Assembly (NCBI GenBank): GCA_026413945.1
Contig: JAOAJX010000003.1
Location: 98,417 to 162,416, forward strand
Direction: 5' to 3'
From: Candidatus Iainarchaeum sp.
Lineage (GTDB): Archaea > Iainarchaeota > Iainarchaeia > Iainarchaeales > DTGL01
DNA length: 64,000 nt
Below, one piece after another: positions 845 to 7,150 of this stretch. The translations under genes were made by a program, and so were the position numbers. Position 1 is the stretch's first letter; every line of letters begins with the position of its first letter. The notes under the pieces were generated by a model. The model was given only the letters and a program-made list of their open reading frames with translations. It was not told the origin of the DNA and did not search any database.

Positions 845-3129
845 ATGGTGATGTTTATGCGAAAAGATTTAAGGAAATTTTATTCAAACAGGCTTTTTAT
901 TTTTTTTATCGCTGTTCTAATCCCTACTTTGGCTTCAGCTTATTGTACCGGAACTCCAAGGCCTTGTTCATATTGGTCGAATAGTTTTAACTGCAGGGAT
1001 GCTGGCTGCACATGGGATTATGATTATTGCACAGGCACGCCAAACAGCTGCTCAACTTATTACAATGAATGGGGTTGCAGAACAGCCGGTTGCACCTGGT
1101 ATGGCGCAACTCAGACACCAAAGCCGAGTGGTTGCTATTCTTGGTCGTATCAATGTGAGTCAGCAAACTCTAGCAAATGTTCTTGCTATGATGCTGTTGA
1201 GTGCCAATATATTGGGATTACGACTGCTATACTTTCTGGTATTGCGACAATACAAAGTGCAACAAGCCAACAGGCTGTTATGAAAACTCTGGAAGCTGCT
1301 ACACACAAAATGCATCAAAATGCTCCTGCAAGGAAGCAGTAAAGTGCAAATACAACAGCACTTATAATTGTTATTCGTTTGATTATTGTGATACCTCAAG
1401 ATGCCCACCAACCGGATGTGTCGGCGCACACACTAATTGCATAGCACTTAACGAGAGACGTTGTGATTGCAGAGAGGCTGTAAATTGCCTTTACAATACT
1501 CTACACGATTGCTATACTTTTAAAGATTGCAACAATAGTGTTTGTAAAGAGCTCGATTGTTCTTTTATTTATATATTAAGCCCACGCAACGCCTCTGTAA
1601 AGTGGAATGAAACTTTATCTGCGCTAGTCATTCTAAGTTGCAATAAGGCTGTAAGTTCTATCACAGTTAATGCGGGTACCAAAAGCAATACATGTTATAA
1701 TCCCTCTGGAAGCACGTGTAAAATCGAATATACTGAAACCATTCCACAAAGTAAGAGCATAGGTAAATATTATATTGACATATCAGGAACAGTTGTAAAA
1801 GGAAATGAGTCAAAAAACTATACAGGTCGCATTGAATATAATGTAATAGAACCACATGATTGCAAACTTAGCTATTATTTAAATTCTAGTTCCCTAAAAC
1901 CAGGCGATTATATATCAGGTAATGCTACCTTGACATGCTATAATAAAGTGGATTTAATAGTTATAACTTTTGGCTCATCTAGAAATAGTTGTAACGCATC
2001 TACATGCAGCATAGATCATCGTGAAAAGATTCCAATAGATAGAGAACCAGGAAATTATACGGTTGCAGTATATGCAACAGCCACAGTGGCAGGAATCCCC
2101 AAAACATATCATGAAACTATTACTTATTCAGTCAAAGATGCATCATTATGTAGAATCCATTTCAACCCACTTAGCGCTTCAGTGAAACCAGGAGACATCT
2201 TAAAAGTTGATGCTGACGTATCATGTAGTACCGGAATGGATTCTATAAGTGTTAGTCTTGGTACCTCAAAAAGGCAATGTCAAAACTTATCTTCATGTAG
2301 CGCCACTTACCAACAAAAAATACCTGATAGCATGAGGCCTGGCAAATATGAAATATTAGCAGAAGCAGCTGTTACGAAAGAAGGCGCATCGAAAAAATAC
2401 AATGCATCTTTTTCCTATACAGTTGAAGAGCCGCCAAAGCCTTGCAGTATAAGCTTTAACCCATCAACCGCGTCCGTATACAAAGGTAGCTCATTTAAGG
2501 TGACAGCAACCATTGGCTGTGGCGATATTATGGATTCCATTGATATTCAGTTTGGCTCAGCTTCTAACAGGTGTCAGAAATCAGCTAGCTGTAGTGTCAC
2601 TTTTGAAATACCCCAATCTTCGACTGCAGGTGTAATATTTGTACATGCATCTGCAAAAGCAACAAAAGGTGGCGTATTAAATACTTATAGCAATATTTTC
2701 AAATATACTGCTACAGACGAACCTTATTGCTTCATAACATTTAGCCCCTCAACAGCAACAGTTGTTGCTGGAGATATTTTGTATGTCAGCGCTATCCTTG
2801 AATGTGATACTACTATAGAACGTCTTAGCATTGTTTTTAGTACAGCATCTAACTATTGCAGCAATTCAAAAGGTTGTATGGTAAGCATAACCATACCAAC
2901 ACGAGGCATAGCACCAGGTGATTATACAATCAATGCGTCAGGAAGTATTGCCTTTAGCGGAAAATCAAAAACATATAGTAGTGCCTTTAAATATAAAATA
3001 ACAAAACCAACGACTTCAGCAGGTTCAACAGCGACATCATCAACTTCTGCACAGTCAACTTCAACCACCTTTGAACAATTCATAGCAGTTATTAGGGAAA
3101 CAATACGTTTTATTTTCCCATTCGGCTAA
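845..3129 (+). pseudogene. Large Cys-rich secreted/surface protein split by a 1-nt frameshift near 1211 (ORFs 845..1342 and 1201..3129)
   Basis: Signal peptide, 2 CTGTP..C repeats and 3 (K/P)P(S/T)GC repeats whose first copy spans both frames, about 5 Ig-like repeats, S/T linker, C-terminal amphipathic helix. Confidence 0.8.
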
Positions 3130-3138
3130 ACCGTGTCC

Positions 3139-3594
3139 TTAAAATTCTTTCTTCAGAAGCACAAGATTTTTGTATTTAGATCCTTCTTTTGTGCCTTTCT
3201 CAAGTAAGCCATATTGCACAAAACCAAGCTTCTCGAAAACCTTTAAGGATACTGCGTTATCATCATTGACTTGGGCTGTTACTATTTCGGTTCCTTTTCT
3301 AATGTTTTTAAGCGCATGCTTTAAAATATGCTGAGCTATTCCTTTGCCTCTATGCTTTTTCGCAACTATAAGAGAATGCAAGCTTGCAATGTGCTTATGG
3401 GGTCCAATGCCATACTTGACAAGCAGATGTGCAATAACTTTGTCGCCCAATTTTGCCACATACCTTTTTTCATTTTTTGAAAGAAAGCTGTTTATAACAC
3501 GCTTTCTGGAGAGTTCAAGACCCCAATGCGGATAAAGCTTTGCTATTCCTGTAGAGTCCTCAATTCTTGCTTCGCTTATCTTTATTTCCGGCAC
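3139..3594 (-). CDS. GNAT family N-acetyltransferase
   Basis: V..KHRGKGIA acetyl-CoA motif A; N..SL..FEKLGF. Confidence 0.85.
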   Translation of the reverse strand: MPEIKISEARIEDSTGIAKLYPHWGLELSRKRVINSFLSKNEKRYVAKLGDKVIAHLLVKYGIGPHKHIASLHSLIVAKKHRGKGIAQHILKHALKNIRKGTEIVTAQVNDDNAVSLKVFEKLGFVQYGLLEKGTKEGSKYKNLVLLKKEF

Positions 3595-4006
3595 CTTCTT
3601 TCAGCCCTTCAATATTTTTTCTCCGCTTTTCCCCCATATGAATTATGAACTCACTGCCAAGGAAATCTCTTCCGACCAATACTGGAAGCTTCATCCCAAA
3701 ACGATCAGCTATAGTGAAAAGCGTCTTTTTTCTTTTTCCGCACATTTCAAGGATTCCTTCAGCAACAGGCCTCCTAACATAGCCTCTTGGTTCAGTCTTG
3801 CTCTTTATCCTCAACACCCTTACAATAGGGCCCAAACCAGCTTTTGCAGCAATTTTAAGATCAACGCTCGATCTTTCAGCACCAGTATCAAGCAAGGCAA
3901 GCGTTTCAACCGCCTTTTTTTTGCCTATTATCTTAACATGCTGAACAAGCCCCACAATCTTTTTCTTCTTCTTTTTGTTGCAAGAAATCCCCCTTTTTTC
4001 AGCCAT
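3560..4006 (-). CDS. RimK-associated retropepsin-like aspartic protease (RimB / putative ATP-dependent Zn protease family)
   Basis: ALLDTGAERSS, RRPV, FTIADR..MKLPVLVGRDFL. Confidence 0.8.
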   Translation of the reverse strand: MAEKRGISCNKKKKKKIVGLVQHVKIIGKKKAVETLALLDTGAERSSVDLKIAAKAGLGPIVRVLRIKSKTEPRGYVRRPVAEGILEMCGKRKKTLFTIADRFGMKLPVLVGRDFLGSEFIIHMGEKRRKNIEGLKEGAGNKDKRSKN

Positions 4007-4094
4007 AACGAGAATAAGTAAAAATCAAAAACTTTTTAAACAAATGAGGAGAATACATATTCACATACGTTTGCCTTTTTGGCATGTGTCTTTT

Positions 4095-4931
4095 ATGAAA
4101 AAGCTGATAATGGCTGTTGAAGGTGAACGCAAAAGGTTTGCATTGCTTAGAAACGCATTTGAGCAAAAAGGCTTCTCAGTTAAGTTACTACCGGTAAGGC
4201 GCCTTACACTTTTTGCTGATAGGAATGGCTCCAAAGCAAAGATTTTTGGCAATGGTAAGTTCGATGGGGCAGTTTACCTTGAAACACCATTCATGCTCAC
4301 TCAGTTTGTCGAGCCGCTTCTTGATTACATTGAAACAAAAGGTTTCTATTGCCAAGTGCATAAAGGAGCCTATTATGTTGGAAGCAATGAGCTGCTTCAA
4401 ATAAGCTTGCTTAGTAGCTATGGTATAAAAATTCCTTATACAAGGATTTTTGGAAATATTGAGCAAATACGAAAAGCCAAGGAGAAGTTTAGCTACCCTG
4501 TCGTTGTTAAGGTTTACAAGAATGGTGAAAAGATACAAAGCATGATTGCTAAAAACTCTGATGCCTTAGCTTCGCTAACCGAGAGGATTGAAGGTGACAC
4601 AGCAGTTGTGAGTGAATTTATAGAAGGTGATATTGAGCATTGTGCCGTTATTGGAGAAGAAGTTTTTGCCCTTAGAAGCACTACATCAGATCCGACAAAA
4701 GTACGACTTATGAAAAATGCAGTTAATGTAAAGCTCTCAAAAACTGAAGAAGAAACAGCCATACAAGCTGCCAGCATTTGCGGCTGTGACATAGCAACGG
4801 TAAAAATGTGCCGTGGCTTTGTTACAAGAGTGAAGCCACATGTAAATATGATTCTTTTTACTAAGAAAACAGGGCGTAACCTTTTTGAAAAAGTGGCAGA
4901 GTTGTTTTACAAGAAAAGTGGTGGTGGCTGA
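4095..4931 (+). CDS. Degenerate RimK-like ATP-grasp protein (probable pseudoenzyme)
   Basis: Collinear with the neighbouring RimK (IPYT, YPVVVK, SEFIEG), but Gly loop and WRAN loop absent; VD->VK, EVN->RVK; likely ATG 4095. Confidence 0.7.
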   Translation: MKKLIMAVEGERKRFALLRNAFEQKGFSVKLLPVRRLTLFADRNGSKAKIFGNGKFDGAVYLETPFMLTQFVEPLLDYIETKGFYCQVHKGAYYVGSNELLQISLLSSYGIKIPYTRIFGNIEQIRKAKEKFSYPVVVKVYKNGEKIQSMIAKNSDALASLTERIEGDTAVVSEFIEGDIEHCAVIGEEVFALRSTTSDPTKVRLMKNAVNVKLSKTEEETAIQAASICGCDIATVKMCRGFVTRVKPHVNMILFTKKTGRNLFEKVAELFYKKSGGG

Positions 4932-5815
4932 TGCCAAGCATTGTAATAATTGCTGCAAAGAACTACAATAAGGGAAATAATAAGCTACTTCTCGAAGAGG
5001 CAAAGAAGGCATTTGATAAGGTGCTGTTTGTGCCTATAAATAAATTAACCATCGTGCACAAAAACGGCACCTCAAAATTGTTATACAAGGGGATAAACCT
5101 TCTGGATTTTGATGCATGTTATCCGAGGTTTGGATCAACCGATTACTTTATGGGGGAAGCAGTACTAAAGGTGATAGAAAGCTCTAAAATATACTCTCCG
5201 GTTTCACTGAAAGGCTATCAAATATCTAACCATAAATTCTATACAATTCAAGAGATTGCAGAAAGCGGCCTTCCATGTGTGCTTACCTCATTGAGTGCTT
5301 CGCCGCAAAGCATGGAAAGCATTGTAGAAGAAATGACATTTCCTCTGGTTTTGAAATTAATAAGTGGCTTCGGTGGACGGGGCGTTATGCTTATCTCAAA
5401 CAAAAACGAGCTTCAATCTATATTAGATACTGTGCACTTATTCGAAGAATATATAACAGCCCAAAGATTTCTGCCTACCGGCAGCACAGACATCAGATGT
5501 TATGTTTTCGGGGATGATGTCTTGAGCGTTAGACGCACAGGTGCTCCAAATGACTGGCGTGCTAACATTTCGCGCGGTGGCAAAGCAGAGATAATAGATG
5601 GTAATCCAAAAATGGAGGAGTGTGCCATTAAAGTTGCTAAACTCCTTGGCTTTGACATATGTGCAGTTGATTTCATTGAAACAGATCTTACCAAAGAGGG
5701 TTTTGCTGTGATAGAAGTCAACTTTCAGCCAGGGCCCTTCAGAAAGTTTTTAGGCAACGTAGTGCCAAAGAAGATGATGGAATTCATAAGGGCAAAGATA
5801 GAAAAAAAGAAATAA
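4931..5815 (+). CDS. RimK/LysX-family ATP-grasp amino-acid ligase
   Basis: PLVLK..SGFGGRGV, QRF, DIRC, WRANISRGG, AVDF, IEVN..PG; TGATG coupling with upstream gene. Confidence 0.9.
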   Translation: MPSIVIIAAKNYNKGNNKLLLEEAKKAFDKVLFVPINKLTIVHKNGTSKLLYKGINLLDFDACYPRFGSTDYFMGEAVLKVIESSKIYSPVSLKGYQISNHKFYTIQEIAESGLPCVLTSLSASPQSMESIVEEMTFPLVLKLISGFGGRGVMLISNKNELQSILDTVHLFEEYITAQRFLPTGSTDIRCYVFGDDVLSVRRTGAPNDWRANISRGGKAEIIDGNPKMEECAIKVAKLLGFDICAVDFIETDLTKEGFAVIEVNFQPGPFRKFLGNVVPKKMMEFIRAKIEKKK

Positions 5816-5821
5816 AACATT

Positions 5822-7084
5822 TCATTCCTGCGCTTTTATTAGAGTTTGTTTTCTTTCTGGGCCATAAGAAATCATTCGTACCCGAATTCCAACATTTTTT
5901 TCAATAAGCTTTATGTAGCTTCTTGCCTCAGATGGGAGATCATAAAAGCTCTTGAGTTCATGGCTAAGTTCAAAACCTTTAAGCCTTACATACATTGGCT
6001 TACACTTCTCGAGCAAAAAGGTATCCGCTGGTACCTCTTTCACTTTTTTGCCTCCAATTTTGTAAGCTGTACTAACTTTTATTTCTTTAAGCCCTGATAA
6101 AACATCGAGTTTTGTTAGTGCAATTTCAGTAAAACCACATATCCTTGAAGCTGTCCTAAGCATTGGCAAATCTAACCAGCCTACGCGCCGAGGTCTGCCA
6201 GTGGTAGTGCCGTATTCATTGCCTTTTTCTCTTATAGCACTGGCAAGTGAGCCATTTATCTCGGTTGGAAAAGGCCCTGCGCCAACTCTCGTACAATAAG
6301 CTTTAGAAACGCCGATCACTCGACATTCATGGTAAGCAATTCCAGCACTCATAAAAGCGCCTGCACTTCCAGTGTGTGAGCTTGTCACATATGGATATGT
6401 GCCAAAATCATTGTCAAGGAAAAAACCCTGTGCGCCTTCAAGAAGAACCTCTTTGCCATTTTTTAGAGAAACGTGTAAATATTTTGAGACATCCATCTGG
6501 TATTTTTTCAACTTGTATGACATTTTGCTAAGTTCTTTGAAAAGCGCCTCTGCATTTTTTTGTTTAAGACCAAATGCTTTAAGCTCCAAGTTTTTTAATG
6601 GCACAACCTCTTTTAACCTTTCATAAAATTTATTCTTGTTAATGAATTCAGAGAATCTTATGCCCTGCCTTGAAGCTCTGTCAGCATAGCATGGTCCTAT
6701 GCCTTTCTTTGTTGTGCCAATTTTTTTACATTTTTTTTCTTCTGAAGCGCCATCAAGCAGCAAATGGTAAGGCATTATTATTTGTGCGCGTGGATCAACA
6801 AAGAGCTTGACTTTTCCGACCTCCTTTTCAATCAGTTCTATTTCTTCTAAAAGAGTTTTTGGATTTATTGCTACTCCACTCGCAAGGCAACAGATTTTTT
6901 TCTGCACAGCCCCACTCGGCATGAGATGGAGCTTGTATGTTTTATTGCCTACAACTACTGTGTGGCCTGCATTGTCGCCACCATTAAACCTAACAACAAT
7001 GTCGGCTTTTTCAGATAGATAATCAATTATTTTTCCCTTGCCTTCATCCCCAAACTGGGCGCCAATTATAACGCTTAACGGCAT
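5822..7084 (-). CDS. purA: Adenylosuccinate synthetase
   Basis: GAQFGDEGKGK, NAGHT, GTTKKGIGP, EGAQG, GTTTGRPRRVGWLD, TKLD. Confidence 0.97.
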   Translation of the reverse strand: MPLSVIIGAQFGDEGKGKIIDYLSEKADIVVRFNGGDNAGHTVVVGNKTYKLHLMPSGAVQKKICCLASGVAINPKTLLEEIELIEKEVGKVKLFVDPRAQIIMPYHLLLDGASEEKKCKKIGTTKKGIGPCYADRASRQGIRFSEFINKNKFYERLKEVVPLKNLELKAFGLKQKNAEALFKELSKMSYKLKKYQMDVSKYLHVSLKNGKEVLLEGAQGFFLDNDFGTYPYVTSSHTGSAGAFMSAGIAYHECRVIGVSKAYCTRVGAGPFPTEINGSLASAIREKGNEYGTTTGRPRRVGWLDLPMLRTASRICGFTEIALTKLDVLSGLKEIKVSTAYKIGGKKVKEVPADTFLLEKCKPMYVRLKGFELSHELKSFYDLPSEARSYIKLIEKNVGIRVRMISYGPERKQTLIKAQE

Positions 7085-7150
7085 ACTAGCACAAATTATT
7101 TGCAACAGCAAAAATTTAAATTACATATGTGCTTCTATTTACTGAGCACA

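Follow-up and report, generated by a model that had tools for sequence, protein, structure and literature searches.

The one case in which RimK-type polyglutamylation is understood is that of ribosomal protein S6 in bacteria. In the report on the RimB-RimK pair (PMC11957791), RimB is described as a retropepsin-like endopeptidase that strips glutamates from polyglutamylated RpsF (bS6) and stimulates the synthesis of free poly-alpha-Glu by RimK, and RimBK hybrid proteins also exist. The survey in that report covers 5959 accessions, all of them bacterial, and the terms archaea, GNAT and paralog occur zero times each in its text. The RloABC system (PMC12239564) consists of a secreted retropepsin-like poly-E peptidase (RloA), a membrane pseudo-transglutaminase with seven transmembrane segments (RloB) and an ATP-grasp protein (RloC), and is linked to hypo-osmotic stress tolerance. 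Here, we analyzed a four-gene locus in a 64,000-nucleotide (nt) stretch of DNA from the DPANN archaeon Candidatus Iainarchaeum sp. (contig JAOAJX010000003.1, positions 98,417 to 162,416; hereafter the window), where two RimK-family genes diverge from a retropepsin-like peptidase gene and a GNAT acetyltransferase gene. The locus proved to be a real and conserved feature, and we read it as an archaeal form, so far undescribed, of a system known from bacteria.

On the minus strand, the GNAT gene (3139-3594; 151 amino acids (aa), GTG start) and the gene of the retropepsin-like aspartic peptidase, which is of the RimB/RloA/DUF785 kind (3560-4006; 148 aa), share 35 nt (3560-3594), so that the GNAT start lies within the peptidase end. 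On the plus strand, LIG1 (4095-4931; 278 aa), a catalytically degenerate RimK paralog, is joined to LIG2 (4931-5815; 294 aa), an intact RimK-family ATP-grasp ligase, through a TGATG at 4929-4933 that combines the stop codon of LIG1 with the start codon of LIG2. The start codons of the peptidase and LIG1 are separated by a divergent intergenic region of 88 nt (4007-4094). The overlap, the coupling and the spacer are all as the first-pass annotation had described them. A LIG1 start at 4095, and not at an upstream TTG at 3975, is supported by orthologs in which the earliest possible start aligns with 4095. The gaps flanking the locus are 9 and 6 nt, and therefore no small gene is hidden in it. 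In the whole host genome (G000; 0.95 Mb, 21 contigs, 92% complete), LIG1 and LIG2 are the only RimK-family genes and the peptidase gene is the only PF05618 gene. The first-pass annotation also knew of no described system with this layout; this stands for the archaeal layout with its dead paralog and its GNAT, but the pairing of RimB with RimK is known in bacteria (PMC11957791). Full-text literature searches, whose coverage mostly excludes subscription journals, turned up neither a RimK pseudo-paralog nor a system of RimK and retropepsin in archaea.

Conservation within the order and across archaea

We surveyed gene content in 61 genomes of the same order, the host genome included. LIG2 orthologs (E≤1e-65) are present in 32 of the 61 genomes, and a LIG1-like gene lies alongside wherever the contig permits. 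The peptidase occurs in 21 genomes, and the gene-neighbourhood search that had been proposed as a check found it in all 21 beside the ligase pair, from which it diverges. The GNAT is present in 16 of these 21 genomes, and gene pairs that overlap or nearly abut are seen again in relatives. Against the closest genome, the ratio of nonsynonymous to synonymous substitution rates (dN/dS) is 0.09 for the GNAT, 0.11 for the peptidase, 0.055 for LIG1, 0.03 for LIG2 and 0.069 for PurA, ratios that are rough because dS is above 0.9 and near saturation. These values come from the closest genome pair only; the second-closest pair gave a saturated dS for two genes. The low ratios indicate that all four genes are under purifying selection.

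Eleven genomes contain the ligase pair without the retropepsin. In ten of these (G015, G017, G028, G033, G039, G044, G051, G056, G059 and G060), a protein of 490-560 aa is encoded directly upstream of LIG1, in which MscS-type membrane and beta domains are fused to a C39-like papain-fold domain (locus L065:7864-9390 on the minus strand, with orthologs in L066-L070 and L072-L074). Its residues Q283, C288, H383 and D399 are invariant and were taken as the catalytic set, and the protein may act as a peptidase gated by membrane tension. This MscS-C39 protein is mutually exclusive with the retropepsin: of the 32 ligase-pair genomes, 21 have the retropepsin, 10 have the MscS-C39 protein and none has both. 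The fetched MscS-C39 loci also carry a third ATP-grasp gene and M20 peptidases, and some of them add an M29, an N-formylglutamate-amidohydrolase-family or a GCS2-like gene. The eleventh genome, G027, has neither peptidase next to its ligase pair; there, the gene that comes after LIG2, on the same strand, encodes a glutamine amidotransferase of the asparagine-synthase type (L064:4006-5835, minus strand), which hints at amidation of the product.

Like the GNAT, a carboxypeptidase of the MATCAP family (PF08014) goes with the retropepsin: 17 of the 21 genomes that have the retropepsin encode it, and none of the 40 others does (examples are G050:C1:309851-311920, G022:C2:43863-44792 and L117:6982-8253). 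Among the 21, it was not found in the host genome, G002, G004 and G032. Taken with the way in which the MscS-C39 protein alternates with the retropepsin, this exclusive co-occurrence suggests a broader, as yet unstudied set of tools that would edit acidic tails or peptides. Some of the MATCAP-family genes adjoin LIG2, and many sit on other contigs.

A pattern scan of species-representative genomes with the peptidase alignment returned 539 relatives, of which the best 80 loci were kept. In 74 of these best 80 of 539 loci, a RimK-family gene lies beside the peptidase relative or is fused to it. The Iainarchaeal loci among them have the divergent layout and often the GNAT. Ten DPANN loci from outside this lineage (Nanoarchaeota, Aenigmatarchaeota, Nanobdellati and others) encode, all on one strand, the peptidase followed by a dead and then a live ligase, and loci titled Woesearchaeota, Bathyarchaeia, Methanosarcinales and Acidobacteria have one live ligase each. 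In haloarchaea, single open reading frames (ORFs) of ~450-820 aa combine a live RimK-like domain, which comes first, with a retropepsin-like domain (L143:2942-4390 and L144:3002-4396, as well as L145, L146, L147, L153, L155 and L157). The relatives of LIG1 are annotated as 'hypothetical protein' in public records.

These distributions bear on whether the four genes are neighbours through conserved synteny alone and have no joint function, as might be suspected from the fact that PurA, a RibL-like cytidylyltransferase and a TyrRS also recur near the ligase pair. We consider this highly improbable, since the pairing of peptidase and ligase is found in several phyla in differing arrangements, which are divergent, co-directional or, in haloarchaea, fused. 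Moreover, the GNAT and MATCAP families track the presence of the peptidase across genomes, the start/stop overlaps are conserved, and the bacterial homologs are known to act together (PMC11957791).

The intact ligase and its degenerate paralog

LIG2 scored 149.6 bits on TIGR00768, above the cut-off of 143.4, and its matches to PF08443 (99.2 bits) and Rimk_N (PF18030; 32.3 bits) reveal a pre-ATP-grasp plus ATP-grasp architecture. The closest solved structures are Pseudomonas RimK (7qyr; 8.4e-31) and E. coli RimK (5zct/4iwx; ~4e-30), while chains of the ArgX/LysX type trail far behind at 3e-16 and weaker. The 30 LIG2 sequences compared all share K142, G146, G149, G151, D187, R189, R210, N212, S214, G216, D247 and N264, and all but one (29 of 30) have E262. 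Among these residues, K142 is the phosphate lysine, G146, G149 and G151 belong to the Gly loop, R210-x-N212-x-S214-x-G216 is the Arg/Asn motif and D247 is a Mg ligand; thus, the full ATP-grasp catalytic set, comprising the lysine, the Gly loop, the Arg/Asn motif and the Asp/Glu/Asn Mg ligands, is intact.

The characterised archaeal roles of the RimK family are those of carrier and cofactor ligases, and LIG2 might be one of them, of the LysX/ArgX-LysW, CofF-F420, MptN-methanopterin or methanofuran/methylofuran kind, with the peptidase and the GNAT as bystanders. A poly-Glu chain is indeed built by a RimK homolog, MyfB, in the case of methylofuran (PMC8141765), and LIG2 does match three of the corresponding models, but all three equivalog cut-offs are widely missed (LysX, 97.8 vs 275.6 bits; MptN, 95.3 vs 350; CofF, 52.3 vs 300). 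Counting the S6-ligase model, to which we return below, LIG2 falls three- to six-fold short of these cut-offs. In a maximum-likelihood tree with the LysX of relatives as outgroup, LIG2, LIG1 and the peptidase-adjacent ligases of other DPANN archaea form one clade (Shimodaira-Hasegawa-like approximate likelihood ratio test support, 98), and the true LysX operons of the relatives form a separate one. The RimK-family phylogeny suggested as a check hence places LIG2 apart from LysX and with ligases that adjoin a peptidase. The remark that no LysW, F420 or methanopterin genes lie nearby can be widened, as no match to LysW (TIGR01206), CofE, CofD or MCH was found anywhere in the 92%-complete genome, while control genomes matched as expected, and no LysZ, LysY or LysJ genes are near the locus.

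A hint at a carrier comes from relatives. A LysW-like zinc-ribbon protein of 64-88 aa (CxxC...CPEC) with a long acidic C-terminal tail is encoded in 29 of the 61 genomes (L098:5727-5948, L063:4646-4864 on the minus strand and L065:1426-1629 on the minus strand, plus 17 more, are among its genes), and in 17 distinct fetched loci the gene is no more than a few kb away from the ligase pair. The LysW model matches this protein weakly in 20 of 20 members, with a best E-value of 3.1e-7, below the cut-off. It was not found in the host genome, where the best hidden Markov model hit (E 0.14) is RNA polymerase subunit P, and it was found in none of the 12 genomes of family f1. Nor is it enriched with the ligase pair, being present in 14 of the 32 genomes with the pair and in 15 of the 29 without it, and we rejected it as a general acceptor. 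In view of these results, a known carrier or cofactor ligase is a very unlikely identity for LIG2.

LIG1 passes PF08443 with 42.2 bits and scores 44.9 on TIGR00768, under the cut-off of 143.4, and its whole length aligns with the LIG2 family (298 columns, hhalign probability 99.9). Its catalytic residues are largely lost. Across 28 LIG1 orthologs, K or Q stands in place of the Gly-loop glycines, the columns of D187 and R210 fall in gaps, R189 is also lost, and the R-x-N-x-S-R-G-G motif of LIG2 is gone. The column of the Mg ligand D247 is Lys in 24 of the 28, and the remaining Mg ligands are variable. The term pseudo-ligase used in the first-pass annotation holds column by column, and judged by these residues, LIG1 is a conserved pseudo-ligase. 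Since the phosphate (ATP) lysine is retained in 25 of the 28 orthologs and the hinge Glu/Asp in 26, LIG1 may still bind nucleotide. The sole invariant residues of LIG1 are E73, P74, N98, P135 and G187. In the tree, LIG1 branches with the dead first ligase of other DPANN archaea (support 88; a long-branch artefact is possible), and the same sub-clades are present in the LIG1 and LIG2 subtrees.

We also predicted the structure of the LIG2-LIG1 complex, which reached an interaction score (ipSAE) of 0.91 in three runs, although solved RimK homo-oligomers exist and the score may mirror likeness to them rather than a property of this pair. The best of three controls scored 0.00, and the mark of 0.91 is attained by 116 of 157 solved complexes and by 2 of 215 mismatched pairs. 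At least 96% of the contacts agree between the runs, and the predicted local distance difference test (pLDDT) score of the partner is at least 87. E73, P74 and N98 lie within the 51-residue LIG1 interface of the predicted complex. LIG1 is thus predicted to be a non-catalytic binding partner of LIG2.

The peptidase, the acetyltransferase and their surroundings

The peptidase is most like the RimB/RloA family, PF05618, which was formerly DUF785 and is named 'Zn_protease', a misnomer. A profile of 21 orthologs matched 9g58 (RloA; 8e-8) and 2pma (1.3e-7) first, while 9g59 (1.2e-4) stands below two Ddi1 chains and the rest of the list consists of Ddi1 and HIV protease. The AlphaFold2 model has a pLDDT of 80.7, and each 10-residue block within residues 21-110 reaches at least 91. 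In a Foldseek search with this model, 2pma, 9g58 and 9g59 came out on top (E 1e-6 to 1e-5), followed by HIV-1 protease, with modest TM-scores of 0.47-0.55. From the model, the peptidase has a retropepsin fold with RloA/DUF785 as its nearest relatives.

The residues D40, G42, G112 and R113 of the D-T/S-G and GRD motifs, as well as K68, R79, D101 and R102, are invariant in the 21 orthologs, and 90% or more of them have A43 and D114. In the profile alignment to 9g58, D40 corresponds to the RloA catalytic residue D48, K68 to K97, R79 to R114 and R102 to R137. PMC12239564 names K46, R114 and R137 among the basic residues that coordinate poly-glutamate in RloA, and reports that the loss of R114 and R137 impaired poly-E cleavage most. 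The N-terminus of the peptidase, MAEKRGISCNKKKKKK, is not hydrophobic, as judged by eye, and has no signal peptide. The peptidase is therefore probably cytoplasmic, and in this respect it resembles the cytoplasmic RimB more than the secreted RloA.

The GNAT scored 52.1 bits on PF00583 (cut-off 20.7). Within its acetyl-CoA motif R82-G-K-G85-I-A, R82, G85 and I86 are invariant in 17 sequences, as are N113 and the K122/G124/F125 block. It falls short of the model of RimI, the S18 alanine N-acetyltransferase (TIGR01575, 37.2 vs a cut-off of 86.4), and it reached no named equivalog. The family profile is closest to N-alpha-acetyltransferases (6wqb, 8e-15; Sulfolobus Ard1 and Naa30, 1e-13 to 5e-12), with diamine acetyltransferases close behind, and the most economical guess for its substrate is the alpha-amino group of a peptide or an amino acid. 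The host genome encodes further GNAT genes; therefore, the GNAT of this locus is not simply a housekeeping enzyme. Strong orthologs (E≤1e-20) were found in 17 of the 61 genomes, in 16 of them directly downstream of the peptidase and in one, G034, beside a lone RimK-like gene, and the remaining genomes gave just weak matches to other GNATs. The locus GNAT is specific to this system. In G034 (L076:5495-6800), the ortholog lies directly upstream of the lone ligase, with no retropepsin and no LIG1, and in the tree this ligase groups with the third ATP-grasp genes instead of with LIG2.

The presence of this GNAT raises another explanation, in which the module makes not a chain but a short N-acetylated acidic peptide metabolite, a compatible solute like N-acetylaspartylglutamate (NAAG) or N-acetylglutaminylglutamine amide (NAGGN), the latter being made by bacterial Ngg. 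The GNAT would then make an N-acetyl amino acid for LIG2 to extend by one or two glutamates, and the peptidase would be regulatory or serve salvage. This would fit a GNAT subfamily that occurs only with RimK-like genes, including the bare pair of G034 that lacks peptidase and LIG1, and the M20, M29 and N-formylglutamate-amidohydrolase families of the sister loci, whose substrates are small peptides or N-acyl amino acids. We nevertheless consider it unlikely. The characterised endopeptidase relatives need at least 8 (RloA) or ~5 (RimB) consecutive glutamates, which makes little sense for a dipeptide, LIG2 is closest to the chain-forming RimK, the match of the GNAT to the Ngg model is negligible (15.9 bits vs a cut-off of 569), and the G034 ligase falls in a different clade from LIG2.

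The intergenic region contains an A-rich and TATA-like box, AAAAATCAAAAACTTTTTAAA, at 4020-4040, ~27-34 nt upstream of the peptidase ATG. In a side-by-side comparison of the intergenic regions of 20 loci, at least 10 have a near-copy of this box similarly far from the peptidase start, and its distance to the LIG1 start is not fixed, with spacers of 54-219 nt among the 20 loci. The proposal of one divergent promoter consequently stands for a conserved box that is fixed relative to the peptidase start, but not for the LIG1 side, where the distance varies. We infer that the box acts as a promoter, and its fixed spacing suggests a leaderless peptidase-GNAT transcript.

Outside the locus, PurA (5822-7111, minus strand) lies tail-to-tail with LIG2, an arrangement seen even in loci titled Woesearchaeota and Nanoarchaeota. 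The gene family of the RibL-like cytidylyltransferase (PF01467; 315-779 of the window, plus strand) recurs near the ligase pair across the order, as does a TyrRS/TrpRS-type gene (PF00579), and such genes neighbour LIG2 in loci L065, L066, L068, L073, L074 and L093. The recurrence of these three families is probably synteny. Two further plus-strand ORFs at 845-1342 and 1201-3129 overlap in different frames, and both encode cysteine-rich repeats with an SKCSC...AV.C.Y motif; they look like one large secreted or surface protein broken by a frameshift or an assembly error.

A candidate add-and-trim module and its described relatives

Taken together, we think that the four genes probably form an alpha-glutamate add-and-trim module, in which a LIG2-LIG1 hetero-oligomer works with a RimB-like cutter and with the GNAT acting on a free alpha-amine. 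LIG2 would be the active ATP-dependent ligase that adds L-glutamate to a terminal carboxylate. LIG1, translationally coupled to it, would be a dead paralog that is kept as a stoichiometric partner and probably hetero-oligomerises with LIG2, shaping its activity or its choice of acceptor. The peptidase would be a cytoplasmic, presumably dimeric, retropepsin-like endopeptidase that cuts glutamate runs, as RimB and RloA do, and the GNAT, co-translated with the peptidase, would most likely acetylate the free alpha-amino group of a starter glutamate or of an oligo-glutamate chain. The writer, the non-catalytic paralog and the RimB-like eraser that the first-pass annotation had proposed are supported by sequence, fold, predicted binding and co-conservation.

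Several observations weigh against this module, including the caveats on the complex score and on dS mentioned above. The single sequence of the peptidase scored 24.7 bits on PF05618, under the cut-off of 27, and matched over its C-terminal half only, and the equivalent of RloA K46 is an invariant Leu (L38) in the peptidase family. LIG2 is under the cut-off of the S6-ligase RimK equivalog NF007764 (109.6 vs 331), and a PF01250 search, in which the control matched in 10 bacteria, found no bS6 in the host genome. Among the 1041 predicted ORFs of the host genome, 61 end in E but only four in EE, namely prefoldin beta, a class V fructose-bisphosphatase, a GT4 glycosyltransferase and a membrane protein resembling the F component of type II secretion systems, and no internal run of five or more glutamates occurs in any of the 1041. 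Finally, the peptidase lacks an adjoining GNAT in 5 of the 21 genomes; the GNAT is therefore not essential to the core.

We considered several proteins as acceptors. None of the four EE-ending proteins stands out as a candidate, and the two FtsZ homologs, with the tails DFTG and DFIP, fail the rule of a C-terminal Glu. PurA ends in Glu in the host genome, but a C-terminal Glu is not conserved among its sequences from 30 loci; PurA was therefore rejected, and its adjacency looks like synteny. If the add-and-trim module is correct, a free or N-acetylated oligo-glutamate is an even prospect as the acceptor. This is because the GNAT has an obvious job only on a free chain, because the sister loci are rich in families that hydrolyse small peptides and N-acyl amino acids and contain the MscS fusion, and because RimB drives the synthesis of free polymer. 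A protein C-terminus is a serious possibility as well, on account of the MATCAP family, the adaptor-like dead paralog and the precedent of RimK, and an acceptor of some other kind would be surprising.

A tentative and rather unlikely extension is that the ligase pair keeps up a cytoplasmic pool of N-acetyl-capped oligo-alpha-glutamate, which is built and cut on demand. The interconversion of many glutamate ions with one polyanion would then buffer osmotic pressure, charge and free glutamate. The cutter would here be the RimB-like retropepsin co-translated with the capping GNAT, and in the sister lineages it would be the cysteine peptidase fused to an MscS mechanosensitive channel, a would-be tension-gated peptidase. 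Such a pool, if it exists, would fit the hypo-osmotic phenotype of the bacterial Rlo system and would explain a RimK system without bS6.

With the add-and-trim module, a writer/eraser logic would be conserved across DPANN and other archaea that lack S6, and the writer would have gained an obligate dead paralog. To our knowledge, a heteromer of a ligase and a pseudo-ligase would be the first for this ATP-grasp family. Whether the archaeal system has a polyglutamylation target or makes free poly-alpha-glutamate is a testable question, as the four genes are small and expressible.

Compared with the described systems, the locus resembles LysX/ArgX-LysW in that a RimK-family ligase acts there on an acidic C-terminal tail. 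It differs in that LysW was not found in the host genome, the LysX cut-off is missed and the LysX operons of the relatives belong to a separate clade. In mammals, NAT8L and RIMKLA/RIMKLB make N-acetylaspartate and then NAAG and NAAG2, the ligase extending an N-acetylated acidic amino acid with glutamate. The combination of an N-acetyltransferase with a RimK-family ligase is shared with our locus, and the likeness is one of pathway, not of sequence orthology; the mammalian system has no such peptidase and no dead paralog, and its product contains only one or two glutamates.

The RloABC system likewise joins a retropepsin-like poly-E peptidase with an ATP-grasp protein, and the structures of RloA/RloA2 are among those nearest to the locus peptidase. 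The sister Iainarchaeal ligase pairs, which come with a membrane protein carrying a papain-superfamily domain, echo RloB. In contrast to RloA, the locus peptidase has no signal peptide, and no RloB-like gene was found in the host genome with the MscS-C39 protein as query. In addition, the MscS-C39 domain of the sister loci has an intact Q/C/H/D set, whereas the RloB domain is inactive and periplasmic.

The closest likeness is to Pseudomonas RimB-RimK (RimABK; PMC11957791, PMC7343187), in which an alpha-glutamate ligase of the RimK family likewise works beside a retropepsin-like peptidase of PF05618 that is cytoplasmic. The best solved relatives of LIG2 are the RimK proteins of Pseudomonas and E. 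coli, and in the locus peptidase the catalytic DTG and the equivalents of the two key arginines are conserved. Unlike RimABK, the archaeal locus stands in a genome without bS6, no RimA/EAL gene adjoins the four genes, and the genes are divergent while the bacterial ones are in one operon. The archaeal locus in turn adds an obligate dead ligase paralog and a dedicated GNAT. In summary, the locus is best explained as an archaeal variant, from the DPANN lineage Candidatus Iainarchaeum, of the bacterial RimB-RimK system.

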